A stretch of DNA of 64,000 nucleotides from Candidatus Omnitrophota bacterium. GTDB taxonomy: Bacteria; Omnitrophota; Gorgyraeia; Zapsychrales; Zapsychraceae. Shown piece after piece: positions 21,287 to 58,379 of this stretch. How positions within the stretch are numbered: the stretch's first letter is position 1; each line of letters begins with the position of its first letter. Both the position numbers and the translations under genes were made by a program. The stretch covers positions 4,472 to 68,471 of the forward strand of contig JADFYE010000011.1 of NCBI GenBank assembly GCA_015233195.1, written 5' to 3'. The notes beneath the pieces are model-generated. The model searched no databases. It was given only the letters and a program-made list of their open reading frames with translations, and had not been told where the DNA came from.

Positions 21287-21288
21287 TA

Positions 21289-31443: not shown

Positions 31444-31559
31444 TTCCTGGATTTTGTACAACTTTAGCCCCCCTTGACAAATTACTATTTATATGGCATG
31501 TTTTCAGCACTTTTTATCAAGTAAACGGTTACTTATTTAACTATTTAACAGGAGATTTT

Positions 31560-42708: not shown

Positions 42709-42737
42709 TTGACAGTAATTTTTTTTTAATATATCAT
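42709..42737 (+). promoter_or_regulatory. Candidate sigma70-type promoter of the mreB operon
   Basis: TTGACA (42709-42714), 17-nt spacer, TATCAT (42732-42737). Its position would exclude the ATG at 42736 as the mreB start. Confidence 0.4.
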
Positions 42738-42786
42738 GTCTATTCTTAACGAGTGTCTGTCACAACTTAACTCAAAGGAAATATTG

Positions 42787-43860
42787 ATGTTACATACTAT
42801 CTTTAAACTCTTCAAAAGATTGTCTAATTGGGTACTTGGTCTTTTTTCAAATGATATGGGTATCGACTTAGGAACTGCCACTACCTTGGTTTATGTAAAA
42901 GGCGAAGGGGTAGTATTGCGGGAACCGTCTGTGGTAGCGATTGAAAAAGATACGAACCGGGTTATTGCGGTAGGGGAAGAAGCTAAAAAAATGTTAGGTA
43001 AAACTCCGGGTAATATTGTGGCTATCCGCCCTATGAAAGATGGGGTTATTTCGGATTTTGAGATTACTGAAGCTATGCTTCGTTATTTTATTAAAAAAGT
43101 ACATCCACGCAGACCTTTGGTCCGTCCGGCAATGGTTATAGCTATTCCGTCGGGAATTACTGAAGTTGAGAAGAGGGCGGTTCGTGATTCTGCCGAACGT
43201 GCAGGCGCGCGCTCAGTTGAATTGATCGAGGAACCTAAAGCTGCGGCAGCTGGGGTTGGGCTTCCAATTGAAGAACCTGAAGGAAACATGATTATTGATA
43301 TTGGTGGTGGTACTACTGAATTCGCGGTAATTTCGTTGGGAGGTTTAGTAAATTCGAAATCTATCCGTATAGCAGGCGACAAACTTGACGCGGCTATAAT
43401 TGAATATTTGCGCAAAACCTATAATTTGATGATTGGGGAACGTACGGCTGAAGAGATTAAGATCCGTATTGGTTCGGCTTATCCGCTGGAAGAAGAATTG
43501 AATATGGATGTACGTGGACGGGATTTAATTTCTGGTCTTCCTAAAACTATTACAGTTACTTCAGTTGAGATCCGGGATGCTTTACAGGATCCGGTACAGG
43601 CGATCGTTGACGCTGCAAAATCTACATTGGAACAAACCCCGCCGGAATTAGCGGCTGATTTGATTGACCGGGGTATTGTGTTAGCAGGCGGAGGAGCTTT
43701 ATTACGCGGTATTGATAAACGGATCGCGGAAGAAACCGGTTTACCAGTGCATATCGCAGATGATCCTTTGACTGCGGTAGTTATGGGTACTGGTCATGTG
43801 TTAAATATGTCGGTGCGGTTGCGTCGTCGTATGGTGGTTCAGACTAAATTAGATTTCTAA
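42787..43860 (+). CDS. mreB: Rod shape-determining protein MreB
   Basis: [14 protein letters not shown], actin-fold phosphate and adenosine motifs ([16 protein letters not shown]). Start set at 42787 (SD AAGGAA 6 nt upstream; the N-terminal length then matches other MreB). Confidence 0.95.
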
Positions 43861-43882
43861 TTTTATATAGGTTTATATTAAT

Positions 43883-44665
43883 GTGTTTGGAAATAGACGA
43901 AATAGCTCTACTTTAATTATAATCATTTGCCTTCCTGTACTTTTCTTTTTGTTCCGCAGTAATTTTTTTGACAGTTTGAAATTCAATTCTATTGATATGC
44001 TAAAAGGACCTATCCGGATATTGGCTTGGCCGGTATTGGAAGTCCGTAAAATGTTTTTGTTTCATGTGAGTTTTAGCGAGAATGTCAGGCTGCGTAAAGC
44101 TAATGAAGTTCTTAAGAGCAGGTTAGTGGGTATGGATGAATTGGTTCGGGAAAATCAGCGTCTGACTGATCTGTTATCGTTAAAACGCAAGAGTGTTTTT
44201 TCTTCAGTAGCTGCTTCAGTTATTGGTCGTGATCCTTCCTATTGGAACTCGATATTGGTTATTGATAAAGGTAGTTCCGATGGGGTAAAGCTTGGACAGG
44301 CAGTAATAAATACCGCCGGAGTAGTGGGTAAAATTATTGAAGTTGGTCGTAATTCTAGCAAAGTAGTTTTGATAACTGATCCGGAATTTAGTGTAGCTGC
44401 GGCGATCGAGGACAGCCGTGAAAGCGGGTTGGTTTCAGGAACTTTGCAGGGTCTATGCAGGATGCGTTATTTGCGCAGTAATGTTTCAGTCGCTGTAGGC
44501 AGCCGGGTAGTTACTTCGAGGATAAGTTCTTCTTTTCCTGAAAATTTAATAATAGGTAAAGTGGATCAAATAGTTCCTTCTCAAGACGCGGATTCAATTG
44601 ATTGTTTAGTAAAACCGGAAGTTGATTTTTCGCGGTTGGAAGAAGTTTTAGTGGTGGGTGAATAA
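43883..44665 (+). CDS. mreC: Rod shape-determining protein MreC
   Basis: GTG start. TM, coiled coil (ENQRLTDLL), beta-barrel region VINTAGVVGKIIEVG. mreB-mreC-mreD synteny. Confidence 0.85.
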   Translation: MFGNRRNSSTLIIIICLPVLFFLFRSNFFDSLKFNSIDMLKGPIRILAWPVLEVRKMFLFHVSFSENVRLRKANEVLKSRLVGMDELVRENQRLTDLLSLKRKSVFSSVAASVIGRDPSYWNSILVIDKGSSDGVKLGQAVINTAGVVGKIIEVGRNSSKVVLITDPEFSVAAAIEDSRESGLVSGTLQGLCRMRYLRSNVSVAVGSRVVTSRISSSFPENLIIGKVDQIVPSQDADSIDCLVKPEVDFSRLEEVLVVGE

Positions 44666-44667
44666 AA

Positions 44668-45150
44668 ATGAAAAGAAGTTTATTTATAGTTTTAGCTTGT
44701 GTGGTGTGTTTTATTATTGAATTTTTATTATTTAATTATGTGTCGCCGTGGTTGCGACCAAGTTTGATTATTATATTATTGGTGTTTGCGGATATATTTT
44801 GGAATGTGCGTTCTGCAGTTTTGGTAGCTCTGGTCGGGGGAATGCTGGAAGATAGTTTTGGTATGACTTTTGGATTTAATATGGTTGCGTATAGTGTATG
44901 CGTTTTGGCAGCTTCTTTTTTAGGTGATTATATTTATCAAAAAGGTTCGCGCTCGTCGTTGGTAGTGCTTTTATTTTTTGTGTTGGGGGTTAATGTTTTA
45001 GTGCGGTTCTTGTTGTTGGCAATGGTAGACCAGGGGATATCTGTTGGCATGGTGCTTAGCGGGATAACAGTAGATATAGTGGTTACATTATTAGTGGCTA
45101 ATATTACATTCAATGGTCTTATAAGATGCGCCTTAAAATTATACGCGTAA
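44668..45150 (+). CDS. mreD: Rod shape-determining protein MreD
   Basis: 160-aa polytopic membrane protein in the canonical position after mreC. Confidence 0.75.
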   Translation: MKRSLFIVLACVVCFIIEFLLFNYVSPWLRPSLIIILLVFADIFWNVRSAVLVALVGGMLEDSFGMTFGFNMVAYSVCVLAASFLGDYIYQKGSRSSLVVLLFFVLGVNVLVRFLLLAMVDQGISVGMVLSGITVDIVVTLLVANITFNGLIRCALKLYA

Positions 45151-46838
45151 TTATCATAGCTTTATTTGTCGGAGTTACTTTGCACCTGTTTTATGCTCAG
45201 GTAATACGCGGAAAATATTATCATAGATTAAGCGCTTATAATCGGATACGGGTAGTCCCTCTTGATGGTTGGCGAGGCTCGATCAAAGACCGTAATGGCG
45301 TGATTCTGGCTGACAATAAACTTTCCTATGATTTATCAGTAACACCGCAGGATATTAATGATGTTGAGCCTTTGTTTGATTTTCTCGAGAATGTTTTAGA
45401 TATTCCTTCTCGGGAATTGAAACTAAAATATCAGCAGAATCGGGAAGCTCCTTTTGCTCCAGTAGTTTTGGCTGAGGGTATTTCCCGGGAGAAAGCGATT
45501 GTTATCGAGGAGAATGAGTATAAGTTCCCGGCTTTATGGGTGCAAAAAACTTTCCGCAGGTATTATCCTTTAGGCAGTAATTCAGCGCATGTTTTAGGAT
45601 ATGTTGACCGGGTAAATGAGGAGACGATAGATAATTTTCAGGGTTATGGATATTCTCCGAGGAGTTTAGTCGGGTATTTGGGAATTGAAGAGTATTATGA
45701 CCGGGAATTGCGCGGTGAAGAAGGCGGTTTGCAGATTGAGGTAAATAATCGCGGTAAGCAGGTCAGGCTTTTGAGCATTAAGGATCCCAGTAAAGGTAAA
45801 GATATCGAATTGACTATTGATTCGGATATTCAAAATATAAGCAGGGAAACTTTAGGCGGCAGGCAGGGCGCGATTGTTATGTTGGATATAGATAGTGGCG
45901 AGATTTTGAGTATGGCGAGTTCGCCGGATTATGATCCGAATATTTTTGTTGATCCAGCGTTGAAAAAAGGTAAAGTGGATATTTTGCGTGATGTCCGGGG
46001 ACCTATGGTTAATCGGTCGGTACGCGGCGCTTATGCTCCGGGTTCCGTATTTAAAGTACCAATGGCGTTTGCAGGGTTAGATTTAAAAAAAATAGCTACC
46101 TATACAACTTTTAATTGCCCGGGATTTTATCAAGTCGGAGAAACTCAGTTTGGATGTTCACATGTGCACGGTGTTCAGGATTTATTTAACGCGATCGCGC
46201 ATTCATGTAATGTTTATTTTTTTAATTTAGGAAAATTGTTAGGTTCGGAAGCTATAGCATATTATGGGAGGATGTTTGGTATAGGCAGACTTACCGGCGT
46301 GGATTTGCCTTATGAAAGACCAGGATATATATCGGATAAAAAAGGTCATGTTACAGCAGGAAAGAATTGGTTTTTGGGTGACACACTAAATATGTCGATC
46401 GGACAAGGCGATACTTTGGCAACGCCTTTGCAGATAGCTAGGATGTTGGCAACTGTAGAAAGAGATGGCGTTGAAGTACAACCGCATATTATTAAGTCAA
46501 TCAATGGAGTAGTGGTTACTAAATATAATTTTACGCGAACGCTTAAACTTAATAAGAGTATTTTTGATGATATAAAAAAAGGTTTGCGTATGACTGTGTC
46601 TGAACCGACTGGTACAGGGTATGATCTTTATATGCCTGATCTTTATGTGGCAGGTAAAACTGGGACAGCTCAGACTGTTCGAGGACGGGAACCGCATGCT
46701 TGGTTTGCCGGATACGCGTTGGGAAAAGAACGTAAAGTGGCGTTTTGTATTTTTTTGGAATTTGGCGGGGGTAGTGAGAACGCGTGTATTATTGGGCGAC
46801 AGCTGCTGACGCGGATGAGGGAACAGGGGAAGATTTAA
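45126..46838 (+). CDS. mrdA: Penicillin-binding protein 2 (elongasome transpeptidase)
   Basis: N-terminal TM, SVFK (SxxK), SCN (SxN), KTGTAQ (KTG). Follows mreD. Confidence 0.92.
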   Translation: MRLKIIRVIIIALFVGVTLHLFYAQVIRGKYYHRLSAYNRIRVVPLDGWRGSIKDRNGVILADNKLSYDLSVTPQDINDVEPLFDFLENVLDIPSRELKLKYQQNREAPFAPVVLAEGISREKAIVIEENEYKFPALWVQKTFRRYYPLGSNSAHVLGYVDRVNEETIDNFQGYGYSPRSLVGYLGIEEYYDRELRGEEGGLQIEVNNRGKQVRLLSIKDPSKGKDIELTIDSDIQNISRETLGGRQGAIVMLDIDSGEILSMASSPDYDPNIFVDPALKKGKVDILRDVRGPMVNRSVRGAYAPGSVFKVPMAFAGLDLKKIATYTTFNCPGFYQVGETQFGCSHVHGVQDLFNAIAHSCNVYFFNLGKLLGSEAIAYYGRMFGIGRLTGVDLPYERPGYISDKKGHVTAGKNWFLGDTLNMSIGQGDTLATPLQIARMLATVERDGVEVQPHIIKSINGVVVTKYNFTRTLKLNKSIFDDIKKGLRMTVSEPTGTGYDLYMPDLYVAGKTGTAQTVRGREPHAWFAGYALGKERKVAFCIFLEFGGGSENACIIGRQLLTRMREQGKI

Positions 46839-46895
46839 TAGTATAGAGTGGATGGTATAGAGTATATAGAAAAAGAATAAAAAATGGTGAAGTGA

Positions 46896-46934
46896 TCCCC
46901 TCTCCGACCTCCGGGGAGAGGGCAGGGTGAGGGG
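46896..46934 (+). repeat. Hairpin repeat family B, copy 2
   Basis: TCCCCTCTCCGACCTCCGGGGAGAGGGCAGGGTGAGGGG; same architecture as 25593-25631. Confidence 0.8.
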
Positions 46935-47092
46935 TTATTTTACTATTTAAGACATTGCGCTTGCCTCGAAGAAGCCTTGGCGAAAAATATGATATTTTGA
47001 TTTTGGTTTAATTATATAATTTTTGTTGAAACAAATTTTTTATTAATCTGGTTTAAAAAAATTGATAGTATGTATTTAATAAAAGGAAAAAG

Positions 47093-47941
47093 ATGAGAAA
47101 AATTTGTTTAATTTTGTTTTTTTTAATATTAGTTATTGGTAATAATGCTTTTTCAGATGATTTGCTACAACAATTATCAGATAAAAGTCTTTTTAATAAT
47201 CAACGTGACGAGGTAGTAAATGCTTTGTTAAAATTAAAACCGACTTTGGCAATGTCTTCAGCTTTGTTAGTGATTATGAACGATAATTATTCTCCTATGG
47301 AACCTGGGATGCCTTCAAAACCTTGGATGGATGATCGCATGTCACAAAAAGCAAAAATTTGGTATGCCGCTGGTGATGTTTGGGATGCTTGGTTTCGTGA
47401 AAAGGATATTAATAAAGTAAAAATTTTGTGTGCATTGCTAAATGAAAATCATTCGAATTATATTTATTATTTGATATTTGGTGAAATGAAAAATGTTCAA
47501 TGGGATGTAGTAGCTGAAGAATCTGTTTATAATTTCACACAAGATAATAAACATGATATCGAATCTCGAGTGCATGCTTATGAAGTTTTAATGAGTCATT
47601 GTAAAGATAAATATATTGCTGAAGTTTTGAGGTTTATTGCGTCTGTACCAAAAAAAGATCAGCTAAACTATTTTTGCAATATTTTTGAGGTTGGAAATCG
47701 GTTTTTCGAATATTCTCTTCCTTCACAAAAAGAAATAATTAAATTTGGTTTTATTCTTCTTGAAGAGGATGGAAAAAATGGTTTTCAGAGTGTTAGAGCT
47801 GTTAATTTGGCACTTCAGTTAGGGTTTTTTCTTAAAATACCTGGTCAATTCGCGTCTGGTGTAGCGTTATTTCATGAATCTTCTGAGTCTATGAATACTG
47901 TAAAAAACGCGTTAAAGTGGAAGAAAGATAATAATTTGTAA
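47093..47941 (+). CDS. Secreted hypothetical protein, very AT-rich orphan gene between mrdA and rodA
   Basis: Signal peptide MRKICLILFFLILVIGNNAFS, no recognisable motif, visibly lower GC than its neighbours. Confidence 0.6.
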   Translation: MRKICLILFFLILVIGNNAFSDDLLQQLSDKSLFNNQRDEVVNALLKLKPTLAMSSALLVIMNDNYSPMEPGMPSKPWMDDRMSQKAKIWYAAGDVWDAWFREKDINKVKILCALLNENHSNYIYYLIFGEMKNVQWDVVAEESVYNFTQDNKHDIESRVHAYEVLMSHCKDKYIAEVLRFIASVPKKDQLNYFCNIFEVGNRFFEYSLPSQKEIIKFGFILLEEDGKNGFQSVRAVNLALQLGFFLKIPGQFASGVALFHESSESMNTVKNALKWKKDNNL

Positions 47942-47971
47942 TCAAAGGGAATATTTAATAGTGAAATTTAT

Positions 47972-48011
47972 CCCCTCATCCTAACCTTCTCCCCAGGGGC
48001 TGGAGAAGGGA
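47972..48011 (-). repeat. Hairpin repeat family B, copy 3 (inverted orientation)
   Basis: Reverse complement TCCCTTCTCCAGCCCCTGGGGAGAAGGTTAGGATGAGGGG. Stem change C->T is matched by G->A relative to copies 1 and 2. Confidence 0.75.
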
Positions 48012-48046
48012 TATTTATTTTTGTATAAAATTTATTAGGACATGAA

Positions 48047-49153
48047 ATGAACAAAAATGTAACTATCAGAATTTGGGTGTTTTCGATATTGATCATGCTG
48101 TTTGGTCTGGTCGGACTTTATAGCGCGACTTTTAATAACACGCGCGTTCCCCAGAAAATATTTTATGATCAAATGATGTTTACTTTAATCGCTGTGCTTA
48201 TTATGTGGGCATTAAGCAATATTGATTATCGTAAATTTTTTGATTTTGCCTATGTCGTATACGGCGCAAATGTTTTGATGTTATTTTTGGTTTTATTAAC
48301 CGGTCGCAATGCTTTAGGCGCGACTCGCTGGTTTGAAATTGCAGGATTTAGTTTTCAACCTTCTGAATTCATGAAGTTGAGCTTGATCTTGGTTTTGGGC
48401 AGGTATTATTCCAGCCGGTCTTCGAATTATATGTTTGGTTTTTATGGCAGGATTCATTATATTTTTCAGTTTATAGTCGTACCGTTTTTGTTAACAGTTG
48501 TTCCAATGCTATTGATATTCAAACAGCCGGATTTAGGTACCGCGATATTATTGTTTGGGATATTTTTAGCGATTATGTTTGTTAACGGCATACCTTATCG
48601 ATTTATGTTTAGTTTTCTGGGTATATGCGTGTTAGCTATGCCAGTGATGTGGATGTTAATGAAAGATTATCAGAAGTCGCGTTTGTTAGTTTTTTTAAAT
48701 CCCAATATTGATCCTTTAGGGTCAGGATACACTATTATTCAATCGAAGATAGCAGTAGGTTCAGGACAATTATTTGGAAAAGGCTGGTTCGCAGGAACAC
48801 AAAATCAGCTTAATTTTTTACCTGAACGCCATACTGATTTTATTTTTTCAGTAATTGGCGAGGAGTGGGGATTTTTAGGCGGGATATTTTTAATAACATG
48901 TTTTTTTGTTCTGGTCCACGCTGGATTAAGTATAGCGGATAAAGTTACAGATAAGTTCGGGGTTAATGTTACTGTGGGTATTGCTGCTATATTGGCTTTG
49001 CAAGTAGTAATTAACATTGGCATGGTCATGGGCATGTTTCCTATCGTAGGTATTACGCTTCCCTTGGTTAGTTATGGCAGGACTTCATTTTTAACTACAG
49101 CGATTATGTTAGGATTTCTTCTAAATCTGAGTAGAAAAAGATCTTTTCAATAA
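48047..49153 (+). CDS. rodA: Rod shape-determining protein RodA (SEDS family)
   Basis: QPSEFMK, KQPDLGTA, PERHTDFIFSVIGEEWGF, LPLVSYGRTS. Confidence 0.93.
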   Translation: MNKNVTIRIWVFSILIMLFGLVGLYSATFNNTRVPQKIFYDQMMFTLIAVLIMWALSNIDYRKFFDFAYVVYGANVLMLFLVLLTGRNALGATRWFEIAGFSFQPSEFMKLSLILVLGRYYSSRSSNYMFGFYGRIHYIFQFIVVPFLLTVVPMLLIFKQPDLGTAILLFGIFLAIMFVNGIPYRFMFSFLGICVLAMPVMWMLMKDYQKSRLLVFLNPNIDPLGSGYTIIQSKIAVGSGQLFGKGWFAGTQNQLNFLPERHTDFIFSVIGEEWGFLGGIFLITCFFVLVHAGLSIADKVTDKFGVNVTVGIAAILALQVVINIGMVMGMFPIVGITLPLVSYGRTSFLTTAIMLGFLLNLSRKRSFQ

Positions 49154-49231: not shown

Positions 49232-49678
49232 ATGAAAGAATTTAAAAGAACTAATACAAAAAAACTTGGTGAAGTGCTGGTCGAGCGCGGGGTTATCAAT
49301 CACCAACAGCTTAATAAGGCTCTAGAGATCTGGCAAGCTAAAGGCGGTCTTATGGGCGAAATATTGGTAGAGCTTAAATTTGCCACTGAAGAGGATATTG
49401 CCCAGGCTTTGACATGCCAGTACGGGTTTCCTTTCTTGCCGTTGAATAATTATGAAGTTGATCCTGTGGTTATGAAATCTGTATCGAGGGAATTGTGCGT
49501 CAAATATGTTTTGGTGCCGATAGATAAGATAGGGAAAAGCATCACTTTGGCTATGGCTAATCCATTGAATACCATGGCGATTGAGGAGCTTGAAACCTTA
49601 ACTGAATGTAGTATTCAAGTGTTTGTAAGTACTACTACGGAAATAAAAAAGTTTTTAGAAAAAAATTACATGGAGTGA
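49232..49678 (+). CDS. Stand-alone GspE/MshE N-terminal (MshEN/T2SSE_N) domain protein
   Basis: KLGEVLVERGVINHQQLNKALEIWQ and LMGEILVELKFATEEDIAQALTCQ tandem helices followed by PFLPL...ITLAMANPLN. No ATPase domain. Confidence 0.75.
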   Translation: MKEFKRTNTKKLGEVLVERGVINHQQLNKALEIWQAKGGLMGEILVELKFATEEDIAQALTCQYGFPFLPLNNYEVDPVVMKSVSRELCVKYVLVPIDKIGKSITLAMANPLNTMAIEELETLTECSIQVFVSTTTEIKKFLEKNYME

Positions 49679-49679
49679 T

Positions 49680-51455
49680 ATGGCGTTCTTAAAAGACCGG
49701 ATCAAAGAAATCCTGTTGCGCGATAATCTGCTCTCTGCTGCTGATCTTGAAAAAGCTTTGAATGAACAAGAGCGGAAAGGCGGCGAATTAAGTCGTATCC
49801 TCGTAGATATGAAGTTGATAGACGATGATACTCTCACTAATGTATTAAGCCGCAGTTTAGGTGTTCCTACCATAAGTATTAGCCGGATTAAGATTGATCC
49901 TTCCATAATCAAAATCATACCTAAAGATGTGGTGGTTAAATATCAGATCATGCCGATATCTTTGATCGGCGAGACTTTGACTATTGCTATGGCTGATCCA
50001 TTGAACATTTTTGTGGTGGATAATGTCAAAGCTGTTACTGGATATATCATAAATACCATAATTGCTCGTCGTTCAGAAATAGCCACAGCTATCGATTTAT
50101 ATTATAAAAAAGATGAGCAGTCTAAAGAAGCGGCGCATGAAGAAACGCATGAAGAATCTTTGGATAAGATCAGTGATCTCATGGGTGATATGGAAAACCC
50201 GGATGAGCTGGATGATATAAAATCCGATGAATTTATGGGATCATCTTCCGGAGTAGAAGAAATAAAAGACGAAGCTCCGATCATTCGTTTAACTGATTCG
50301 ATAGTGCGGCAAGCAGTATTGATGAAATCCAGCGACGTATTTATTGAACCTTTAGAACGGGAGATGCGGGTACGTTTGCGGGTTGACGGAATGATCCGGG
50401 AGATAGACCGTTTGCCTAAGGCTATTCTTGCGCCTTTGGTTTCACGCATTAAAGTTATTTCTAATCTTGATATTTCTGAACACCGGTTGCCGCAGGATGG
50501 CAGGTTTAAGATGATAGTTTCAGCTGATAAAGAAGTTGATTTTCGTGTTAATGTTTTGCCTACAGCTTTAGGCGAGAAAGTTTGTTTGCGGGTTTTAGAC
50601 CAGAGCGGGACAGTATTAGACGTTGAAAAATTAGGGTTTGAGCCGAGCTCATTAGAGCGGTTAATAGAGTGTACTAAAAAGCCGCATGGGATGATATTGA
50701 CTTGCGGACCTACGGGAAGCGGAAAGACCACGACTTTATATTCCATTCTTAAACATGTTGATTCACCGGAAAAAAATATTGTTACAGTTGAAGATCCAGT
50801 CGAGTATCAGTTCAAAGGCGCTTGTCAGGTTAATGTTAAACCTGCGATGGGTTTAACCTTTGCTGCTAGTTTGCGTTCAATATTGCGGCAGGATCCGGAT
50901 ATTATTATGATCGGAGAGATCCGGGATGCTGAAACTTTGGATATAGCAGTTAAAGCTGCTTTGACCGGACATTTGGTGCTGAGTTCTTTGCATACGACTA
51001 CAGCTGCCGGATCAGTAGTGCGTATGGTGAATATGGGGGTTGAACCATTTTTAATTTGTTCTTCAGTTTTATGTATTATAGCCCAGCGTCTTTTACGTAA
51101 AGTATGTCAGAATTGTAAAGAACCTTATACTCCACCCGACGCTGTAATTGAAAGAGTTGGTTTGCGGCAGATTTCTCAAGAAAAAACCATTACGCTTTAT
51201 AAAGGTAAAGGCTGTGACCAGTGTTTTAAGAGCGGGTATAAAGGGCGGGTTGGTATCACCGAAATTTTAGTTATAACTCCAGCAGTCAAAGAAGTGATAA
51301 CAGCTATGGCTGGCGAACCTAAGGTTAAAGAAGTTGCGCGGCAGGAAGGAATGATAACTATGCGCGAGGACGCTTTGTATAAAGCGTTGAAAGGACTGAC
51401 TACGCTCGAGGAGGTTTTAAGAATTACAGCACCTGACGAAACATTGAAAAAATAA
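49680..51455 (+). CDS. Type IV pilus / T2SS assembly ATPase (PilB/GspE family), copy 1
   Basis: N-terminal MshEN-like domain, Walker A GPTGSGKTTT, Walker B DPDIIMIGEIRD, His box LSSLHT, tetracysteine CQNC...CDQC. Confidence 0.92.
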   Translation: MAFLKDRIKEILLRDNLLSAADLEKALNEQERKGGELSRILVDMKLIDDDTLTNVLSRSLGVPTISISRIKIDPSIIKIIPKDVVVKYQIMPISLIGETLTIAMADPLNIFVVDNVKAVTGYIINTIIARRSEIATAIDLYYKKDEQSKEAAHEETHEESLDKISDLMGDMENPDELDDIKSDEFMGSSSGVEEIKDEAPIIRLTDSIVRQAVLMKSSDVFIEPLEREMRVRLRVDGMIREIDRLPKAILAPLVSRIKVISNLDISEHRLPQDGRFKMIVSADKEVDFRVNVLPTALGEKVCLRVLDQSGTVLDVEKLGFEPSSLERLIECTKKPHGMILTCGPTGSGKTTTLYSILKHVDSPEKNIVTVEDPVEYQFKGACQVNVKPAMGLTFAASLRSILRQDPDIIMIGEIRDAETLDIAVKAALTGHLVLSSLHTTTAAGSVVRMVNMGVEPFLICSSVLCIIAQRLLRKVCQNCKEPYTPPDAVIERVGLRQISQEKTITLYKGKGCDQCFKSGYKGRVGITEILVITPAVKEVITAMAGEPKVKEVARQEGMITMREDALYKALKGLTTLEEVLRITAPDETLKK

Positions 51456-51458
51456 TTT

Positions 51459-53171
51459 ATGGCGAAGACTGTTAAAGATACAATTTTGGATGGATTAGTC
51501 AATTCCGGGAAGTTTCCTCCCAAGGTATTGGAAGAAGCACGTCTGCTTAATCAGAGAGAGAAAATCCCTTTTGAGAAAGCTTTGATTAAAAAAGGTTTGA
51601 TTACAGAAGAAGATTGGTTATTGCTGCTGGTCGACGAATTAGGTATTCCTTTTGTAAATATAGCTAGGTATAAACTTACACCTTATCTGCAAGAAATCAT
51701 TCCTGAGTCAGTTGCCCGGCAATATAAAATCGTGCCTTTGTCTGATACTCAATTTTCAGTAACAATTGCTACATCTGACCCCTTGAATGTTTATGCCCTC
51801 GATGATTTAAAAAATATTACCGGAAAACGTATTGACATAGTCTTGAATACTGAAACCGAGATCATGAAAAAGATCGATGGTTTTTATGGAGATCCAACCA
51901 AACGTGATGCTCCGGAATTCAAAGCTCAGGACGCTGCTTTAGAAGCCTTTGAGATTGTTTCGCAGAAAGAAGAAGAGGGCGCTTCAACTGATGGGTCGGA
52001 TGAATCGGACAAAGCTCCGATAATACGGATGGTAAATTTGATATTAAAGGAAGCTTTACGTCAACGCGCGTCGGATATACACATTGAACCTATGGAAACT
52101 TGCGTGCGGGTGAGGTACCGTATAGACGGTGTTTTACGGGATGTTTTAACTATTCCTAAAAAGAATCAGAATGCTATGGCTACGCGTATCAAGATCATGT
52201 CGCGTTTGGATATTACGGTAAATCAAATGCCTCAAGATGGACGGTTCAAACTGACTTTAAAAGATAAGAGTGTGGATTTCCGGGTGTCAATATTACCGGC
52301 TACATTCGGACCTAAAGTGGTTATGCGTATTTTGGATCGTTCAAAATTAGCAGTTGGTATAGACGGGTTGGGATTATCGCCTAAGGCTTTGACAGTTATT
52401 AAAGACGGTATTAAAAAACCGTTTGGTATGCTTTTAGTTACTGGTCCTACTGGAAGCGGTAAATCTACAACTTTGTATTCGATTGTGAACGAGCTTAATA
52501 CAGTTGAAAAAAATATTATTACGGTCGAAGATCCGGTTGAGTATTTGCTGGAAGGTTTGACGCAGATACAAGCCATGCCTGAGATTGGGCTGACTTTCGC
52601 TGAAGGCTTACGTTCGATTTTACGTCAAAGTCCGGACATTGTTATGGTCGGGGAAATACGGGACGGTGAAACTGCGGATATTGCTATTAAAGCTTCTTTG
52701 ACCGGTCAATTAGTGTTATCTACTTTGCATACTAATGATGCTCCTGGTGCCTTGACTCGTTTGGTGGATATGGGGGTAGAACCTTTTTTGGTGGCGTCCA
52801 GTCTGGTGCTGGTAACTGCTCAGCGTTTGTGTCGTAAAATATGTCAGCATTGCAAGGCAGAGGTAAAGATCGAAACAGATATTTTAAAACGGATAGGACC
52901 CCTGGTTCCTAAGGGGACAGTTTTTTATCAAGGAAAAGGCTGTGAGTTTTGTAAAAATACCGGATATAACGGGCGCATGTCTGTGACTGAAGTTTTGGAA
53001 GTTGATGATGATGTACGTATGATGTTATTGGAAGGCAAAACTTCTGATGACATAAAGAAATTTGCTTGTGAGCAAAAAGGAATGAAGACTTTGTATCAGG
53101 ACGCCATGGCTAAATGTATAGACGGTCAAACTACTATGGAAGAAGTGTTTAGGATTACAAGTAGTGACTGA
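51459..53171 (+). CDS. Type IV pilus / T2SS assembly ATPase (PilB/GspE family), copy 2
   Basis: Walker A GPTGSGKSTT, SPDIVMVGEIRD, LSTLHT, CQHC...CEFC. 3-nt gap to copy 1. Confidence 0.92.
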   Translation: MAKTVKDTILDGLVNSGKFPPKVLEEARLLNQREKIPFEKALIKKGLITEEDWLLLLVDELGIPFVNIARYKLTPYLQEIIPESVARQYKIVPLSDTQFSVTIATSDPLNVYALDDLKNITGKRIDIVLNTETEIMKKIDGFYGDPTKRDAPEFKAQDAALEAFEIVSQKEEEGASTDGSDESDKAPIIRMVNLILKEALRQRASDIHIEPMETCVRVRYRIDGVLRDVLTIPKKNQNAMATRIKIMSRLDITVNQMPQDGRFKLTLKDKSVDFRVSILPATFGPKVVMRILDRSKLAVGIDGLGLSPKALTVIKDGIKKPFGMLLVTGPTGSGKSTTLYSIVNELNTVEKNIITVEDPVEYLLEGLTQIQAMPEIGLTFAEGLRSILRQSPDIVMVGEIRDGETADIAIKASLTGQLVLSTLHTNDAPGALTRLVDMGVEPFLVASSLVLVTAQRLCRKICQHCKAEVKIETDILKRIGPLVPKGTVFYQGKGCEFCKNTGYNGRMSVTEVLEVDDDVRMMLLEGKTSDDIKKFACEQKGMKTLYQDAMAKCIDGQTTMEEVFRITSSD

Positions 53172-53248
53172 TAAGATTGATAAAGAAACGCTTTTTAAAA
53201 TATGGTTTGATGATAAAATGAATATAAATTATTTTGAGGGGATAGATA

Positions 53249-54451
53249 ATGGCTACTTTTAAGTATGTTGGAAAAGACGCGGAATCAAAAAGTATTACTG
53301 GCAAGATTTCAGCTGATGACCGTAATGCGGTTATTGAAGAGTTGCGTAAGCGCAAACTCACCATTATTTCGGTTACTGAAGTAAAAGATGAAAAAGTTAA
53401 AGCTGGAGCGAGAAAGAAAGTTAAGCCAGAAGAAGTTGTGCTTTTCGCGCGTCAGCTGGCTACCATGGTCGAGGCTGGTATGCCTATATTACAGGGGTTG
53501 AACGCTTTATCGGAGCAGACTACCAATGAAGGATTTAAAAAAGTTTTGACTGAAGTTGAAATGGATATTAAGCATGGCAGCAGTTTATCCTCGTCTTTTG
53601 CTAAACACCCTTATGTTTTTAATAATTTATTCGTTAATTTAGTTAAGGTTGGTGAGACCGGCGGTATTTTAGCTACGGTATTGGACCGGGTTTCAACTTA
53701 CATGGAAAAAACTTTGAGTTTGCAGCGCAAAGTAAAATCCGCATTGGTTTATCCCGCGGTAGTTGTATCAATGGCAGGGATTATAACTATAATTTTGTTG
53801 GTCAAGGTTGTTCCGACATTTTCAGGCATATATTCATCTTTCGGTAAAGAGCTGCCGCCTATGACGCAGGTGTTAGTAAATACTAGTAATTTTTTGCGTT
53901 CATATTTATTGTTGGTTGTTGCTGCTATAGTTGGTTTGATTTTTGCTATGAATCGCTGGCACAAAACTGAAAAAGGAGCGGTTGCTATTGACGGCGCTAT
54001 TTTGCGTATGCCGGTATTTGGTGAACTTTTACGTAAGGTAGCGGTAAGCAGGTTTACTCGGACTTTAGCTACTTTGGTACAGAGCGGTGTTCCTATTTTG
54101 GAATCTTTGAATATTGTGGAAAAAACTATAGGTAACCGGGTGCTTGAGAATGTAATTAAAGATGTTCAAACTAGCGTTCGTCAGGGAGAAAGTTTAGCTG
54201 TTCCTTTAGAAAAAAGTTCGGTTTTCCCTCCAATGGTTACCCGTATGATTTCGATTGGTGAAAAATCCGGTCAAATGGAAAAAATGCTTTTAAAAGTATC
54301 TGAGTTTTATGATGATCAAGTGGATACTGCAGTTGAAGGTTTAACGAGTATGATCGAACCATTAATTATCGGGGTTATGGGTATAGTTATCGGGTTTATT
54401 GTCGTGGCTTTGTTTATGCCAATATTATCAATGTCGCAATTGGTAAGTTAA
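53249..54451 (+). CDS. Type IV pilus / T2SS platform protein (PilC/GspF family)
   Basis: Two T2SSF repeats (FARQLATMVEAGMPIL and FTRTLATLVQSGVPIL), 3 TM segments, 400 aa. Confidence 0.92.
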   Translation: MATFKYVGKDAESKSITGKISADDRNAVIEELRKRKLTIISVTEVKDEKVKAGARKKVKPEEVVLFARQLATMVEAGMPILQGLNALSEQTTNEGFKKVLTEVEMDIKHGSSLSSSFAKHPYVFNNLFVNLVKVGETGGILATVLDRVSTYMEKTLSLQRKVKSALVYPAVVVSMAGIITIILLVKVVPTFSGIYSSFGKELPPMTQVLVNTSNFLRSYLLLVVAAIVGLIFAMNRWHKTEKGAVAIDGAILRMPVFGELLRKVAVSRFTRTLATLVQSGVPILESLNIVEKTIGNRVLENVIKDVQTSVRQGESLAVPLEKSSVFPPMVTRMISIGEKSGQMEKMLLKVSEFYDDQVDTAVEGLTSMIEPLIIGVMGIVIGFIVVALFMPILSMSQLVS

Positions 54452-54453
54452 AC

Positions 54454-55389
54454 ATGTTTAGAAAAATAAATTTAATTTTGATGATGTTTTTGGTCTTGAG
54501 TATCAGTTCGTCTTTTGCTCAAGAAGGGAAAGTTACTGTTCGGGATTGGAACGGTTCTTTAGAAGCGCTAAATGAAAGTTTGAAGAGAGTTTATCAGAAT
54601 AATCAGGCTTTATCAGCCCAGATTGAAATTTTAAATGCTGAGGTTGATAAGTTACAGGCTCAAACGGATGAGTTGGATACGCACGCGGTTGATGATCCGG
54701 GAAATTTTGCTTTTAATAATAAAAAAGAAGTTGAAGTTTTTCAGAAAGAAGCGGATAGAGTTTATCAGAATTTAAAAGATATAGCTAAAGAGCGGCAAGA
54801 ACTGGAAGTAAGATTAATTGAAAAAAATAAAGAAATGGTCCAGCTTAAAGCGGATATTGATAGTCTGTATAAGATAGTGGCAGGGTTAAAAGAAAAAATA
54901 CAATATTCTTCAGAAGGTAAAGACCCGGATATTGAACGACAAAAAAAAGATCTTAATTCCTGGATTAGTGAAACAGAAAAAAGTTGTAATAAGGCGCAAA
55001 ATGAATTAGCTGCGTTACGGAAAAAAAATACGGTTAGTGGAAAGACGAAGAAATTAGAGAAAAGGAAAATTGAACTTCAGAATAAGCTCGAAAAATTAAA
55101 GCAGGAAATAGCAGTATTACAGGAAAATCAGCAAGTTGATGCTGGGTCGTTGAAACTGGAACAGGAATATCAAGATAAGATCAGCAGCATATCTGAAAAT
55201 ATTTCTAAACTTGAAAAACGTCGGGATGAATTGAACGGAGTTTTGGACCATATAGCGGAAAAATTAGATAAAAATAATTTTCATCTGGACCAGGAAAATG
55301 TTGATGTTAAAGAATTAGAGCATAATTTAAAAGTTTTAAAAGATGAAAATATTCAGTTAAAGAATGATTTTAATCGTCTGCAAAAATAA
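54454..55389 (+). CDS. Exported or anchored coiled-coil protein, function unknown
   Basis: Signal/anchor MFRKINLILMMFLVLSISSSFAQ followed by about 280 aa of heptad-rich E/K/Q/L sequence. 2-nt gap after pilC. Confidence 0.65.
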   Translation: MFRKINLILMMFLVLSISSSFAQEGKVTVRDWNGSLEALNESLKRVYQNNQALSAQIEILNAEVDKLQAQTDELDTHAVDDPGNFAFNNKKEVEVFQKEADRVYQNLKDIAKERQELEVRLIEKNKEMVQLKADIDSLYKIVAGLKEKIQYSSEGKDPDIERQKKDLNSWISETEKSCNKAQNELAALRKKNTVSGKTKKLEKRKIELQNKLEKLKQEIAVLQENQQVDAGSLKLEQEYQDKISSISENISKLEKRRDELNGVLDHIAEKLDKNNFHLDQENVDVKELEHNLKVLKDENIQLKNDFNRLQK

Positions 55390-55399
55390 AGGCGCGTAA

Positions 55400-55969
55400 G
55401 TGGCAGATCAGTTTGATCCACAGGTAATGGTTACAGCGTTGATGGGTTATGTTCAGGAAATTTTGGAAACAAAGTGCAAAGCTAAATTATCTGAAAAAGC
55501 CGCTTTTTTGAAAAAGAATATCATTGAGTATGACAGCAAAATGCGGCTTTTTGGTTTGGAAAAATTTGATGGACCTTGTTATGTTGCGGCAATTAATTTA
55601 TATTTGACTAAGCAAAAGTTGGAAAATAAAGATTGCTGCGGTGTGATAGTTTTATTTTTGGATGAAGAAATTGCTGAGCTTTTTGTCCGGGCTTTGCAGC
55701 CAGGGGTGAGTTATGAGGATCCGGATGTCGTTATGGATAATTGCGGGGAATTATGTAATATTATTGCTGTGCAGTTTAAGAATGAAGCTGTGAATTTTGG
55801 ATATGCTAATTTGTTTTTATCCGCTCCGGTTAAAGCGCATAATGATATAATGTATGGAGTAGATTTTCCTTTTGAAGAAGACTTTTATTATGAAATAAGT
55901 TTTAAAGTAAAAAATAGGAAAGCTGTGGTAGTGTCATTTGTGATGGCTAATGTTGCGAATAAAAATTAA
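55400..55969 (+). CDS. CheX/CheC-like CheY-P phosphatase
   Basis: GTG start. Exact match to the CheC/CheX/FliY active-site consensus D/S-x3-E-x2-N-x22-P: D113-NCG-E117-LC-N120-(22 aa)-P143. Confidence 0.65.
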   Translation: MADQFDPQVMVTALMGYVQEILETKCKAKLSEKAAFLKKNIIEYDSKMRLFGLEKFDGPCYVAAINLYLTKQKLENKDCCGVIVLFLDEEIAELFVRALQPGVSYEDPDVVMDNCGELCNIIAVQFKNEAVNFGYANLFLSAPVKAHNDIMYGVDFPFEEDFYYEISFKVKNRKAVVVSFVMANVANKN

Positions 55970-56058
55970 GCGGTAAAAAATTTTTGATTGGCGGTTTGGG
56001 TTATTTTCGTTAGAATTATCAAAAGTCGTTGCATGTTGGTAATTACAGGGGATTTAAA

Positions 56059-56475
56059 ATGGATAAAAATGAACATTCTGATTCAAGTAACCGTCGTCAA
56101 TTTACTCGGGTTGACCGACCGCATTTATTGAAGGTGAAAGTTTTTGATCTTAAGGAACAGGACTCTGTACGCAGGATTGAAGCGGTAACGAGAAATGTTT
56201 CTGCCGGAGGTTTGGCGTTTGAGTCAGAACAGTTTTTTGAAGCTGGTACAGTTTTGGAAATAGAATTAGATGCTCCAGGCTGGGAAAAAATAAAAGGAAT
56301 ATTTGCCGCGGAAGAAAATGAACCTCGTCTTTCTGCGGTAATGCTTTTAGCAAAAGTTATCCGGACCAGGGTGATTGAAGAAGGATTATACGATATTGCT
56401 GTAGCTTTTGTGGGTATAGATGAACGTCACCGTAACGCGTTAATGAAGTATGTAAAAGAGAAAGATAAAGTATAA
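56059..56475 (+). CDS. PilZ-domain protein (c-di-GMP receptor)
   Basis: RRQFTR (RxxxR) and NVSAGG (D/NxSxxG) with the right spacing. Start set at ATG 56059. Confidence 0.8.
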   Translation: MDKNEHSDSSNRRQFTRVDRPHLLKVKVFDLKEQDSVRRIEAVTRNVSAGGLAFESEQFFEAGTVLEIELDAPGWEKIKGIFAAEENEPRLSAVMLLAKVIRTRVIEEGLYDIAVAFVGIDERHRNALMKYVKEKDKV

Positions 56476-56487
56476 GTTGGAGGTAAA

Positions 56488-56916
56488 ATGGCAAAGAATA
56501 CAGTTTTAGTTGTAGATGACGAAGAATATATGGTTAGTCTGCTTAGGCGGGCATTGACTGATGAATCAACAGAAGTTATTGGCGCTTGTAATGGGCTAGA
56601 AGCTTTAGATTTAGTGGTTAACCGGCATGTGGATTTGGTGATTGCAGATAACAATATGCCTAAATTATTGGGTGAAAAACTTTTGGGTGAAGTCAGAAAG
56701 CTTGATCCGTTCATACAGCTAATAATGATTACCGGTTATCCGTCGATGGATGTGATTAATAAAATGTTAGAGATTGGGATATCGGATTTTGTGATCAAAC
56801 CTTTTAATCTGCAGGAATTGCAAGATATGGTAAGAGAAACTTTGCGGCGGGTTGAACGCTGGCGAAAGTTAAGGAAAGATTGGAGCTCAAATCAAAAACC
56901 CACAGGACCCGCATAA
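56488..56916 (+). CDS. Single-domain response regulator (receiver only)
   Basis: VLVVDDEE, LVIADNNMP, MITGY, VIKPF. Confidence 0.88.
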   Translation: MAKNTVLVVDDEEYMVSLLRRALTDESTEVIGACNGLEALDLVVNRHVDLVIADNNMPKLLGEKLLGEVRKLDPFIQLIMITGYPSMDVINKMLEIGISDFVIKPFNLQELQDMVRETLRRVERWRKLRKDWSSNQKPTGPA

Positions 56917-58058
56917 TGGTTTCGATTTTGATCGTAGATGATTCTGATGTGGAATGCACTTTGGTCAGAAGTATTATTGCAAAAAACTTTCCGGATTCGG
57001 TTATTTCGATAGCACATAATGGTCAAGAAGCTTTTAATTTATTAGCAAAATCTCCGGCAGATATTATTTTATCTGATATTATGATGCCGGTTATGGACGG
57101 TCTGGAATTTTGCCGCAAGGTAAAAAATATCCCGTCGCTTAAAGATGTTCCAGTCCTTTTAGTTTCTTCCCTGTACCAATTACATGAAAAAAATGAAGGC
57201 TTTGAAGCTGGGGCTTCAGATTATATTGTCAAGCCGATTGAGACCGACGAAGTAGTGGCGCGGGTCAAAGTGCATCTTAGCATCAAACAAAATCACGACG
57301 AGTTAAAAAAACTTAATAAAGATTTGAAAGCCGCGCAGGAAGCGTTGATCCAGAGCGAAAAAATGTCAGCAGTTGGTTCTTTGGCTGCTGGAATATCGCA
57401 TGAGTTTAATAATATTTTGGGAATGTTAAAAGGTTATGTGCAGTTATCGCAGCAGAAGAGTCGGATCGAAGAAGTAAAATCTTTTTTGTCAGTCATGGTG
57501 GAATTAATAGACCGGGGCGAATTTTTAGTTAGGTCGATGATGGATTTTTCTAAGGGGAGCGTATCAGAAAATAAACAGAAGGTCATGTTACCGGTTTTAA
57601 TCAAGAAAGTTCTGGTATTAATGGAGCAAATGCTGCGTTCCAAGTGTATTGAGATTGAATTTTCAGATCAAACAGTTTTGGAAATAGAGTGTTACCCTAA
57701 TCAGCTTTCTCAAGCTTTTATAAATTTTATAAAAAATGCTATGGAAGCTTGTGAAGAAAGTTCTATAAAGAAAATCAAGATCGAATACGGTAAATTTATT
57801 ATAGGAACAGATGGTAAAGAATCAGCCTATATTCGTTTTATTGATACTGGTTCAGGTATACCTGAAGCAATACGTAACCGCATATTTGATCCGTTCGTAA
57901 CCACTAAAGGGGTTATTTCCGGAGGTGACAAGTCAAAATCCGGCACAGGTTTAGGGTTGACCATAACTTATGATATAATTAAAAAACATAATGGAGATGT
58001 AAAAGTAGAAAAGACCGGTCCAGACGGAACTACGATGTTAGTTTGCCTTCCTCTTTAA
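56916..58058 (+). CDS. Hybrid receiver-histidine kinase (REC, HisKA, HATPase_c), no sensory domain
   Basis: Start at 56916 (TAATG overlap). ILIVDDSD, ILSDIMMPVMDG, KPI. H-box GISHEFNNIL. DTGSGI and GTGLGL. Confidence 0.88.
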   Translation: MVSILIVDDSDVECTLVRSIIAKNFPDSVISIAHNGQEAFNLLAKSPADIILSDIMMPVMDGLEFCRKVKNIPSLKDVPVLLVSSLYQLHEKNEGFEAGASDYIVKPIETDEVVARVKVHLSIKQNHDELKKLNKDLKAAQEALIQSEKMSAVGSLAAGISHEFNNILGMLKGYVQLSQQKSRIEEVKSFLSVMVELIDRGEFLVRSMMDFSKGSVSENKQKVMLPVLIKKVLVLMEQMLRSKCIEIEFSDQTVLEIECYPNQLSQAFINFIKNAMEACEESSIKKIKIEYGKFIIGTDGKESAYIRFIDTGSGIPEAIRNRIFDPFVTTKGVISGGDKSKSGTGLGLTITYDIIKKHNGDVKVEKTGPDGTTMLVCLPL

Positions 58059-58169: not shown

Positions 58170-58379
58170 ATGGAAAAAGAAAAGTTGCGGGATTTGATCC
58201 ATGATCTTAGTCAGCCTCTTTCTGCCGCATCGGTCAATATTAATGTGGTCGCTTCAATGATAAGTAAAAAATCGGTTAACCTACCTGAAATAAGAAAAAT
58301 CATAAGTGATGTTGAGCGAGAGAATCAGCATGCTTTTGAAATTTTGGAAACAATCAGGACTTACATTAAGGAGAATTAA
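58170..58379 (+). CDS. Stand-alone DHp (HisKA-like dimerisation/phosphoacceptor) protein, 69 aa, no ATPase domain
   Basis: SD GGAGGTG. LIHDLSQPLSAASVNINV resembles the FixL-type H-box (HELNQPL) followed by a second helix. 2-nt gap to the FixJ-type regulator. Confidence 0.6.
   Translation: MEKEKLRDLIHDLSQPLSAASVNINVVASMISKKSVNLPEIRKIISDVERENQHAFEILETIRTYIKEN

Follow-up and report, generated by a model that had tools for sequence, protein, structure and literature searches.

What might a type IV filament motor do in a stretch of genome that encodes no filament? The question is raised by a cluster of genes at positions 49,232 to 55,389 of a 64,000-nucleotide stretch of DNA from a Candidatus Omnitrophota bacterium (contig JADFYE010000011.1, positions 4,472 to 68,471; hereafter, "the window"). 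The stretch belongs to a metagenome-assembled genome (MAG) with locus tags beginning HQL25_. The cluster encodes a stand-alone MshEN-domain protein, two PilB-type ATPases in tandem, one PilC platform protein and a coiled-coil protein. We propose that this locus is the motor of an Omnitrophota-type type IVa pilus (T4aP), that the motor is intact and in use, that its two PilB proteins serve distinct roles and are accompanied by a detached copy of the PilB N-terminal domain (N1D), and that the pilus genes are located elsewhere in the genome. We would assign this reading a probability of roughly 70%.

All of the genes in question lie on the forward strand. The first (49232..49678) specifies a 148-aa protein, identical to HQL25_05375, whose only Pfam domain is MshEN (also GSPII), the domain that resembles the N1D of PilB. 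It is followed by PilB1 (49680..51455; 591 aa), the more canonical of two paralogs of the T4aP assembly ATPase, and by PilB2 (51459..53171; 570 aa), the diverged one. Both have the Pfam domains MshEN and T2SSE, the latter with E-values of 2e-136 and 3e-131, respectively, far beyond chance. PilC (53249..54451; 400 aa) occurs as a single copy at the locus and matches T2SSF in two stretches (E = 6e-66). The gene for the coiled-coil protein (54454..55389; 311 aa) completes the set, and the gaps between the five genes are 1, 3, 77 and 2 nt.

An initial annotation, made from the sequence of the window, had described the first four of these genes, their tight packing, and their position behind mreBCD-mrdA-rodA; the coordinates of the open reading frames (ORFs) and the Pfam matches agree, with the addition of a 282-aa ORF before rodA. 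It had also remarked on the missing filament, and our searches bear this out for the window. A six-frame scan of all 64 kb yielded no class III prepilin motif, and our own hidden Markov models (HMMs) found no third T2SSE-family ORF, PilT included, in the window. Among the other window ORFs of at least 90 aa, Pfam recovered no PilMNOP alignment complex, no PilQ or other secretin, no PilT, and no prepilin peptidase (PilD; Peptidase_A24). The set characteristic of a type II secretion system (T2SS), namely GspC, GspL, GspM, GspD and the pseudopilins, likewise has no member in the window. With two tandem PilB genes, a single PilC and a detached MshEN domain, the arrangement is indeed not the textbook layout of a T4aP, MSHA, Tad or T2SS locus.

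The same block in other Omnitrophota provides the context that the window lacks. Two samples of loci were assembled. The first came from a pilin-centered scan of species-representative genomes, with an alignment of Omnitrophota major pilins as the query (80 loci, none of them from the HQL25 MAG); the second comprised metagenome contigs centered on the MshEN-only gene. Both were annotated with HMMs built from orthologs, and Peptidase_A24 was not among the families searched for in these relatives' loci. The MshEN-only gene is followed by PilB1 and PilB2 in 36 of 36 core-centered metagenome loci, which answers in the affirmative whether the cluster is conserved. In the relatives, only one PilC is found, behind the ATPase pair, and a pilin or PilMNO follows within six genes of PilC in 19 of the 23 metagenome loci that have enough sequence.

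Individual loci illustrate what the complete operons contain. L001 and L004 run mreB-mreC-mreD-pbp2-rodA, MshEN-only, PilB, PilB, PilC and a coiled-coil protein of ~310 aa, and then reach the pilins: one of 132 aa (MKRINNKGFTLVEIMIVVAIIA...), further N_methyl proteins (minor pilins), and a DUF4900 protein. In L008, a minor pilin and a GspK-like (T2SSK-like) gene stand upstream of the core, with two pilins, PilM, PilN and PilO downstream of it. The core of L014 is followed by a pilin, PilM, PilN, PilO, PilP and a secretin with STN/N0 domains; L035 has a 355-aa PilT, the core, pilins and PilMNOPQ; and L046 has minor pilins and PilMNOPQ behind the pilin. The T4a pilins of these relatives have a short leader and read KGFTLVEIM.... 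Further, 32 of 34 metagenome contigs (L094-L172) have rodA upstream of the MshEN-only gene, at a distance of at most four genes. The adjacency of elongasome and motor genes is phylum-wide synteny and not a peculiarity of the window locus. The earlier picture of an orphan, non-textbook system is thus only partly right: the layout is unusual, but the idea of a motor with no filament system finds no support, for the orthologous block sits inside complete T4aP operons in relatives.

T4aP genes have been detected by TXSScan in most Omnitrophota genomes (PMC10066038). The unusual feature is the phylum-wide layout of tandem PilB genes and a free N1D; that T4aP are common in the phylum was known before. 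Our literature search found no description of the gene order MshEN-only/PilB1/PilB2/PilC, and this motor represents a T4aP variant that is real and conserved and has apparently not been described before. We also observed that several records labeled "uncultured Planctomycetales/Planctomycetia bacterium" (L015-L017, L020-L023, L035 and L057) carry the Omnitrophota-type operon and pilin; judging from these sequences, the labels are probably wrong.

The pilins are missing from the window because the operon has undergone a lineage-specific break after the coiled-coil gene. They are absent from this position only in the window (HQL25) and in its closest relative, HQL26 (GCA_015233115.1, L173), whose motor proteins are 87-88% identical to those of the window; chemosensory and two-component genes are found there instead. 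In HQL26, the genes behind the coiled-coil gene (L173:10001-20561) encode CheX, PilZ, CheW, PilZ, CheW-REC, CheR, CheB, REC, Hpt and CheA, and the array continues with CheD, CheX, REC, a receiver-histidine kinase (REC-HisKA-HATPase) and a 69-aa ORF. No gene for a methyl-accepting chemotaxis protein was seen in this downstream cluster. The window holds both ends of the array without its middle; the Che genes were either deleted in the window lineage or gained in HQL26.

The signaling block that replaces the pilin genes in the window, likewise on the forward strand, opens with a CheX-like protein of 189 aa (55400..55969). It scores 26.1 bits against Pfam CheX, just below the cutoff of 27, and belongs to a small family of seven proteins found in Che clusters; HQL26 also has a CheX-like gene right behind the coiled-coil gene. 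Next comes a PilZ-domain protein (56029..56475; Pfam PilZ, 40.3 bits) whose translation contains both RQFTR (RxxxR) and NVSAGG ((D/N)xSxxG), and which is likely a c-di-GMP (cyclic di-GMP) receptor on the basis of these motifs. A receiver protein (56488-56916) and a receiver-histidine kinase (56880-58058) correspond to the conserved end of the HQL26 Che block, and more receivers and kinases lie beyond. The kinase gene is followed by an ORF of 69 aa that matches HisKA weakly (58170-58379); it may be a real small gene, since HQL26 has a 69-aa ORF in the corresponding position. In the HQL25/HQL26 lineage, the proteins of this chemosensory and two-component block, placed as it is after the coiled-coil gene, could add further input to the motor.

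Is a motor in this situation still functional? Between the window and HQL26, the nonsynonymous divergence (dN) is 0.086-0.10 for the four motor genes, 0.10 for rodA and 0.19 for pbp2, with synonymous divergence (dS) saturated. Because the dN of the motor equals that of rodA, we take the motor to be in use and under purifying selection. The same equality rules out a decaying remnant.

Purifying selection would also be expected if the motor were truly orphaned, that is, if the pilus genes had been lost and the ATPases and PilC reused under chemosensory control, whether for secretion via another conduit or for signaling. Neither the 8.6 kb downstream of the window motor nor the 49 kb upstream of it contains a pilus structural gene, and there is none within 10 kb downstream of the HQL26 motor. 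However, each of these contigs represents only ~70-80 kb of its genome, T4aP genes occur in most genomes of the phylum (PMC10066038), and PilB and PilC have no known function in the absence of pilins. Further, unlinked pilin-PilMNOPQ clusters exist in other Omnitrophota: in L028, L036, L051, L052 and L058, such clusters have no motor within 10 kb upstream. We therefore regard reuse of an orphaned motor as quite unlikely. By analogy with these unlinked clusters, the structural genes (pilins, minor pilins and PilMNOPQ) are most likely encoded elsewhere in the HQL25 genome. It does weigh against our proposal that the pilin, PilMNOPQ, PilD and PilT of this MAG have not been seen, our view being that of the 64-kb window. 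There is also a lesson for annotation. A broken operon can be all that lies behind a window with a motor and no pilins, and automated callers will under-call such systems if they insist on co-localized components.

If the locus is a T4aP motor, why does it have two ATPases? One explanation is that each serves a machine of its own, one being the PilB of a T4aP and the other the GspE of a T2SS, with no more than the locus in common. The NCBIfam models offer some reason to consider it. The top model for both ATPases is the PilB equivalog TIGR02538, yet both score under its cutoff of 675.65 (PilB1, 644.0; PilB2, 605.7); both are also below the cutoff of 630.25 for the GspE equivalog TIGR02533 (557.3 and 594.6, respectively), which leaves PilB2 nearly equal on the two models. 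PilC, too, is matched equally as PilC (400 bits) and as GspF (398 bits). Comparison with proteins of solved structure separates the alternatives. The two ATPases score 504-524 bits to Geobacter PilB, 468-501 to Myxococcus PilB and 452-505 to Thermus PilF, but only 370-394 to GspE and ~105-128 to PilT. Taken singly, PilB1 reaches 524 bits with Geobacter PilB versus 393 with GspE, and PilB2 508 with PilB versus 394 with GspE, so each is more than 100 bits closer to PilB.

The gene neighborhoods argue in the same direction: there is a single PilC/GspF, the pair is inseparable in all 36 loci, and what stands beside it in relatives is PilMNOPQ and T4a pilins, with no GspC, GspL or GspM. A PilT-rooted neighbor-joining (NJ) tree of the ATPases from 29 (PilB1) and 32 (PilB2) genomes (Kimura distances, 100 bootstraps) recovers PilB1 and PilB2 as monophyletic groups of their own, with bootstrap values of 81 for the former and 72 for the latter. 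By sequence score, both are nearest to T4aP PilB; the initial annotation had allowed that they might turn out to be an ordinary PilB and GspE, and they do not. The position of the single PilBs of Verrucomicrobiota/Kiritimatiellae relative to the two clades is poorly supported in this tree (31-34%). An origin of the two ATPases in two machines is thus highly improbable, and we conclude that PilB1 and PilB2 do not each belong to a system of their own.

The two proteins are 41% identical to one another. The initial annotation had held that the catalytic motifs of both were intact, and this is nearly so. Among 29 orthologs of PilB1 and 32 of PilB2, little or no variation is seen in Walker A and B, the Asp box, the second His or the four Cys; the part of the claim that does not stand concerns the His box of PilB2 (LTGQLVLSTLHTN), which reads TGQ...LHTN, with Gln in place of the first His (TGH). 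TGQ is found in 23 of the 32 orthologs. The PilB2 family also has RQSPD in place of RQDPD, and 17 of 29 PilB1 orthologs have LHTT instead of LHTN. These family-specific changes adjoin the nucleotide site. The N1D of PilB1 is the closest to that of Geobacter PilB (47% identical), and the N1D of PilB2 is the most diverged (34%). PilB1 and PilB2 are old, distinct paralogs that have kept their catalytic motifs and are probably active.

In Myxococcus and Geobacter, the gene order is pilB-pilT-pilC. PilB2 occupies the place of pilT in this order, and one may ask whether it is an antagonist of PilB1, a PilB-derived ATPase for retraction or disassembly. No PilT is present in the window or in most of the sampled loci, the changes from TGH to TGQ and from RQDPD to RQSPD are specific to the PilB2 family, and its N1D is the most divergent; all of these would be in keeping with such a role. 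Conversely, PilB2 is of full length, with N1D, N2D and the zinc-binding Cys4, which PilT lacks, and its similarity to PilB (508 bits) far exceeds that to PilT (~105-128 bits). It also coexists with the enzyme that it would replace: a true PilT of 355-370 aa is encoded directly upstream of MshEN-PilB1-PilB2 in four lineages. We consider a retraction role for PilB2 unlikely.

The two PilBs would instead drive the insertion of pilins through one PilC, which would serve as the inner-membrane platform, with both ATPases needed and each having its own role. A precedent exists in Acinetobacter baylyi, in which two non-redundant PilB-family ATPases power one T4aP; the proposal there is that TfpB starts extension and PilB continues it (Ellison et al. 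2021, PMC8213720). The analogy has limits. The Omnitrophota paralogs are not TfpB (both are far below the cutoff of 850 for the TfpB model NF053534, at 433 and 454 bits), and unlike the Acinetobacter pair they are adjacent, co-oriented with PilC, distributed phylum-wide and accompanied by a detached N1D. PilB1 and PilB2 might take turns, one in initiation and the other in processive extension, or they might form a mixed ring. That they act on the same PilC at all, and in what mode, is something we infer, and this must be counted among the weaknesses of our proposal.

More broadly, the locus resembles the canonical T4aP of Myxococcus xanthus, Geobacter and Pseudomonas in its PilB-like ATPases and PilC, to which the relatives add pilins, minor pilins, PilMNOP and PilQ. 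It differs in that the canonical systems have one PilB, whereas the Omnitrophota have two in tandem and an extra free N1D protein. PilT is absent from most Omnitrophota loci, one clade has a secreted coiled-coil protein behind PilC, both ATPases fall below the NCBIfam PilB cutoff, and the structural genes are presumably unlinked in the window genome.

The accepted extension motor is a single PilB hexamer, and the one studied exception, PilB/TfpB of Acinetobacter, has been treated as a surprise. In the Omnitrophota, two PilBs and a detached regulatory domain are found in every sampled locus of a phylum with reduced genomes, which argues for non-redundant roles. These bacteria thus offer a natural system in which to ask how a single platform is shared between two ATPases, and what an N1D does when untethered from its ATPase. 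The matter may bear on their lifestyle, since type IV pili are believed to have a central part in host attachment by the very small, possibly predatory or parasitic Omnitrophota (PMC10066038).

What, then, is the detached N1D? The 148-aa protein scores 63.3 bits against Pfam MshEN (PF05157; cutoff, 23.1), and its whole length can be aligned with the PilB N1Ds from Geobacter and Myxococcus, as well as with the GSPII domains of Thermus PilF. An AlphaFold2 (AF2) model calculated from an alignment of 38 family members has a pLDDT of 89.5. In Foldseek comparisons, this model superposes on the c-di-GMP-bound MshEN domain of Vibrio cholerae (5HTL, PMC5013675) with TM-scores of 0.81-0.85 and a root-mean-square deviation of 2.1 Å over 138 columns. 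It also resembles GSPII-B of PilF with c-di-GMP (TM 0.75-0.80) and the PilZ-bound N-domain of Xanthomonas PilB (TM 0.78). The predicted fold is that of V. cholerae MshEN, a two-motif four-helix bundle followed by a C-terminal subdomain. The two proteins are only 23-24% identical, and the Omnitrophota protein differs from its counterpart in not being fused to an ATPase.

The protein is widespread and well conserved. More than 1100 homologs were found. The best 120 listed are 143-174 aa in length and 60-85% identical to it, with a mean top-residue frequency of 0.81, and the named ones among them are all from Omnitrophota. We considered whether the gene could be an artifact of assembly or a frameshift that splits a PilF-like ATPase with two MshEN domains. 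This explanation is ruled out by a separate ORF of ~150 aa in more than 1100 sequences and by the variable junctions: the MshEN-only and PilB1 genes are 1 nt apart in the window, overlap in L001, and are separated by 60-130 nt in L008, L013, L019 and L032. Free-standing MshEN proteins of ~150 aa are common overall (among the best 150 MshEN cluster representatives, 62 have no more than 200 aa), and a literature search for such proteins in pilus operons returned nothing relevant.

We suggest that the 148-aa protein probably acts in trans on the ATPases, as a receptor for c-di-GMP or as an adaptor. The consensus sought was (R/K/L)LGxx(L/V/I)(L/V/I)xxG(L/V/I)(L/V/I)xxxxLxxxLxxQ, in two 24-residue copies with a spacer of ~5 residues. 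Motif I (KLGEVLVERGVINHQQLNKALEIW) fits save for a terminal Trp where the family has Gln, and the spacer is QAKGG. Motif II (LMGEILVELKFATEEDIAQALTCQ) has Leu at position 1, Lys for the turn Gly, and F-A for a hydrophobic pair. In place of the two Arg residues that stack in MshE it has Lys11 and Leu40, a pair that PilF GSPII-B shares (K167/L196). That domain has a dissociation constant of 6 nM for c-di-GMP, and the consensus was extended to (R/K/L)LG... on that basis (PMC11731258). Further, 102 of 120 stand-alone proteins have two copies of the tandem motif hG..hh....h...h, whereas none of 29 PilB1 or 34 PilB2 proteins has two. The NCBIfam model for the c-di-GMP motif (NF053729; cutoff, 38) is matched by the 148-aa protein at 59 bits and by PilB1 at 43.7 bits; PilB2 has no match.

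Thermus thermophilus PilF carries three tandem GSPII/MshEN domains on one ATPase, of which B and C bind c-di-GMP and A, although MshEN-like, does not; small deviations can abolish binding (PMC11731258, PMC12002112). The likeness is that the motor has several MshEN-type domains, one of them in the window having the Lys/Leu variant of GSPII-B. The difference is that the three domains of PilF form one chain, whereas those of the window belong to three separate polypeptides, namely the free protein and the two ATPases. Made together with PilB1, from which its gene is separated by a single nucleotide, the free N1D copy would bind c-di-GMP and signal in trans to the ATPases or to a docking site; as a sensor, or as a docking adaptor, it would thereby gate the motor. 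We base this step on fold, motif and gene neighborhood.

Several observations count against a sensor. The 148-aa protein of the window has no strict match to the c-di-GMP motif: its motif I ends in Trp and its motif II has Lys at the turn Gly. Position 1 of motif I is Gln or His, not Arg, Lys or Leu, in most members of the family, and the relaxed motif of Wang et al. matches once in only 14 of 120. PilF GSPII-A sets the precedent that minor changes are enough to lose c-di-GMP binding (PMC12002112). Nor is the division of labor between the ATPases and the free N1D clean, because the N1D of PilB1 also passes NF053729.

These same features invite another explanation, in which the detached protein does not sense c-di-GMP but is a docking adaptor or competitor. 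It would take the N1D site on PilM or PilC, or on the ATPase ring, and so decide which ATPase engages or hold the motor off. The loss of both canonical Arg residues, the prevalence of Gln/His at motif I position 1 and of Lys at the motif II turn, and the want of a strict motif match would all be explained, with the non-binding GSPII-A as a parallel. Conservation across the whole protein, including the residues P96, D98-G101 and N110-P111 that are invariant in the C-terminal subdomain (38-sequence alignment), suits a protein-protein surface. The resemblance to the Xanthomonas N-domain in its PilZ complex is of the same kind. But the tightest binder known has precisely this Lys/Leu variant, the motif glycines and Leu positions are kept in the stand-alone proteins and lost from the N1Ds of the ATPases themselves, and c-di-GMP-related genes recur nearby. 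A pure adaptor is a possibility to be taken seriously, though we think it the less probable one; the roles of sensor and adaptor are, moreover, not exclusive.

The PilZ protein of Xanthomonas is not known to carry the c-di-GMP motifs. In the PilB-PilZ-FimX complex of Xanthomonas citri, an N1D-type domain docks PilZ, linking c-di-GMP signaling to PilB (PMC8389850; PDB 7LKM, 7LKO). Besides the structural likeness of the 148-aa model to that N-domain, the window has a PilZ gene two genes downstream of the coiled-coil gene. In contrast to the Xanthomonas protein, the PilZ of the window has both RxxxR and NxSxxG, and no FimX-like gene is present in the window. Taken with REC-HD-GYP and GGDEF genes in other lineages, the window PilZ makes the gene neighborhood lean toward c-di-GMP signaling.

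The genes found around the core in other lineages are as follows. A REC-HD-GYP phosphodiesterase gene is inserted between PilB2 and PilC in L046 (7061-8197), L019, L026 and nine metagenome loci, a position occupied in the window by an empty 77-nt gap; the full HHExxDGxGYP motif is present in 15 of 20 inserted proteins. A second, more diverged stand-alone MshEN gene is found between PilB2 and PilC in L014 (6680-7138), L013, L015, L016, L021, L025 and L034, as it is in 12 of 36 metagenome loci, and several of these second copies have a near-canonical R(L/I)GE.. motif I. Directly upstream of the MshEN-only gene, L046 (1771-3189), L035 (1695-3167), L077 (2885-4204) and 45 others have a HAMP-GAF-GGDEF gene; among the metagenome loci, it is present in 14 of 34. 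It is tempting to regard this gene as a local source of c-di-GMP, but 40 of the 48 upstream GGDEF proteins lack GG[DE]EF (they have GDNEF, GDHEF, GDDEF or GPNEF instead). This degeneracy of the active site, which tells against our proposal, means that these genes are not evidence of local c-di-GMP synthesis, and we have ruled them out as such a source. Their products are more likely sensors or scaffolds than cyclases.

A bolder version of our proposal can be entertained only tentatively. It envisions an obligate two-PilB motor, mixed in one ring or alternating on one PilC, with a free c-di-GMP-binding N1D that chooses the ATPase, possible retraction without pilT, and chemosensory control in the HQL25/HQL26 lineage.

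The coiled-coil protein behind PilC was predicted correctly as such by the initial annotation; however, it has 311 aa, not ~280, and its N-terminal sequence resembles a cleavable signal peptide (cleavage between SFA and QE) and not an anchor. In a single-sequence AF2 model, the signal peptide is followed by five long helices, and a globular domain is absent (pLDDT 71), and the generic coiled-coil matches are below threshold. It had been noted that the gene stands where PilN/PilO-like proteins might be expected. The protein is no stand-in for these, because both co-occur in relatives; with PilMNO present alongside it there, we have ruled out such a substitution. The gene directly follows PilC in 14 of 23 metagenome loci, which form one large clade, and is absent in others. 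It evolves fast, with 52% identity to the HQL26 protein versus 88% for the motor proteins. From its sequence, it is a putative clade-specific accessory periplasmic protein of the pilus operon.

Upstream of the motor, positions 42736..49153 of the forward strand encode mreB, mreC, an mreD-like gene, pbp2 (mrdA) and rodA (Pfam). The 282-aa ORF between pbp2 and rodA (47093-47941) has a signal-peptide-like N-terminus and no Pfam match; in relatives, rodA follows pbp2 directly. A scan for promoters and terminators between 42 and 60 kb gave counts no higher than those in shuffled sequences and no intergenic terminator, so the operon boundaries are not firmly defined by it. By Pfam, the other window ORFs of at least 90 aa include kinases, AddAB-like nucleases, TPR proteins and housekeeping genes. 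A DUF4143/AAA_14 ATPase gene and a 1480-aa ORF without a Pfam match (30295-36002) lie between an rluD-like gene and genes for a 331-aa protein and an EPSP-synthase-family protein. This segment looks like a lineage-specific insertion, because L001 and L004 run from RluD directly to the latter genes. A 553-aa ORF without a Pfam match (21283-22944) is located behind two TPR proteins. Finally, GC skew is positive in all 2-kb bins of the window (1-64000) and nearly all of the long ORFs are on the forward strand; the window thus appears to belong in its entirety to a single replichore and to have its genes co-oriented.

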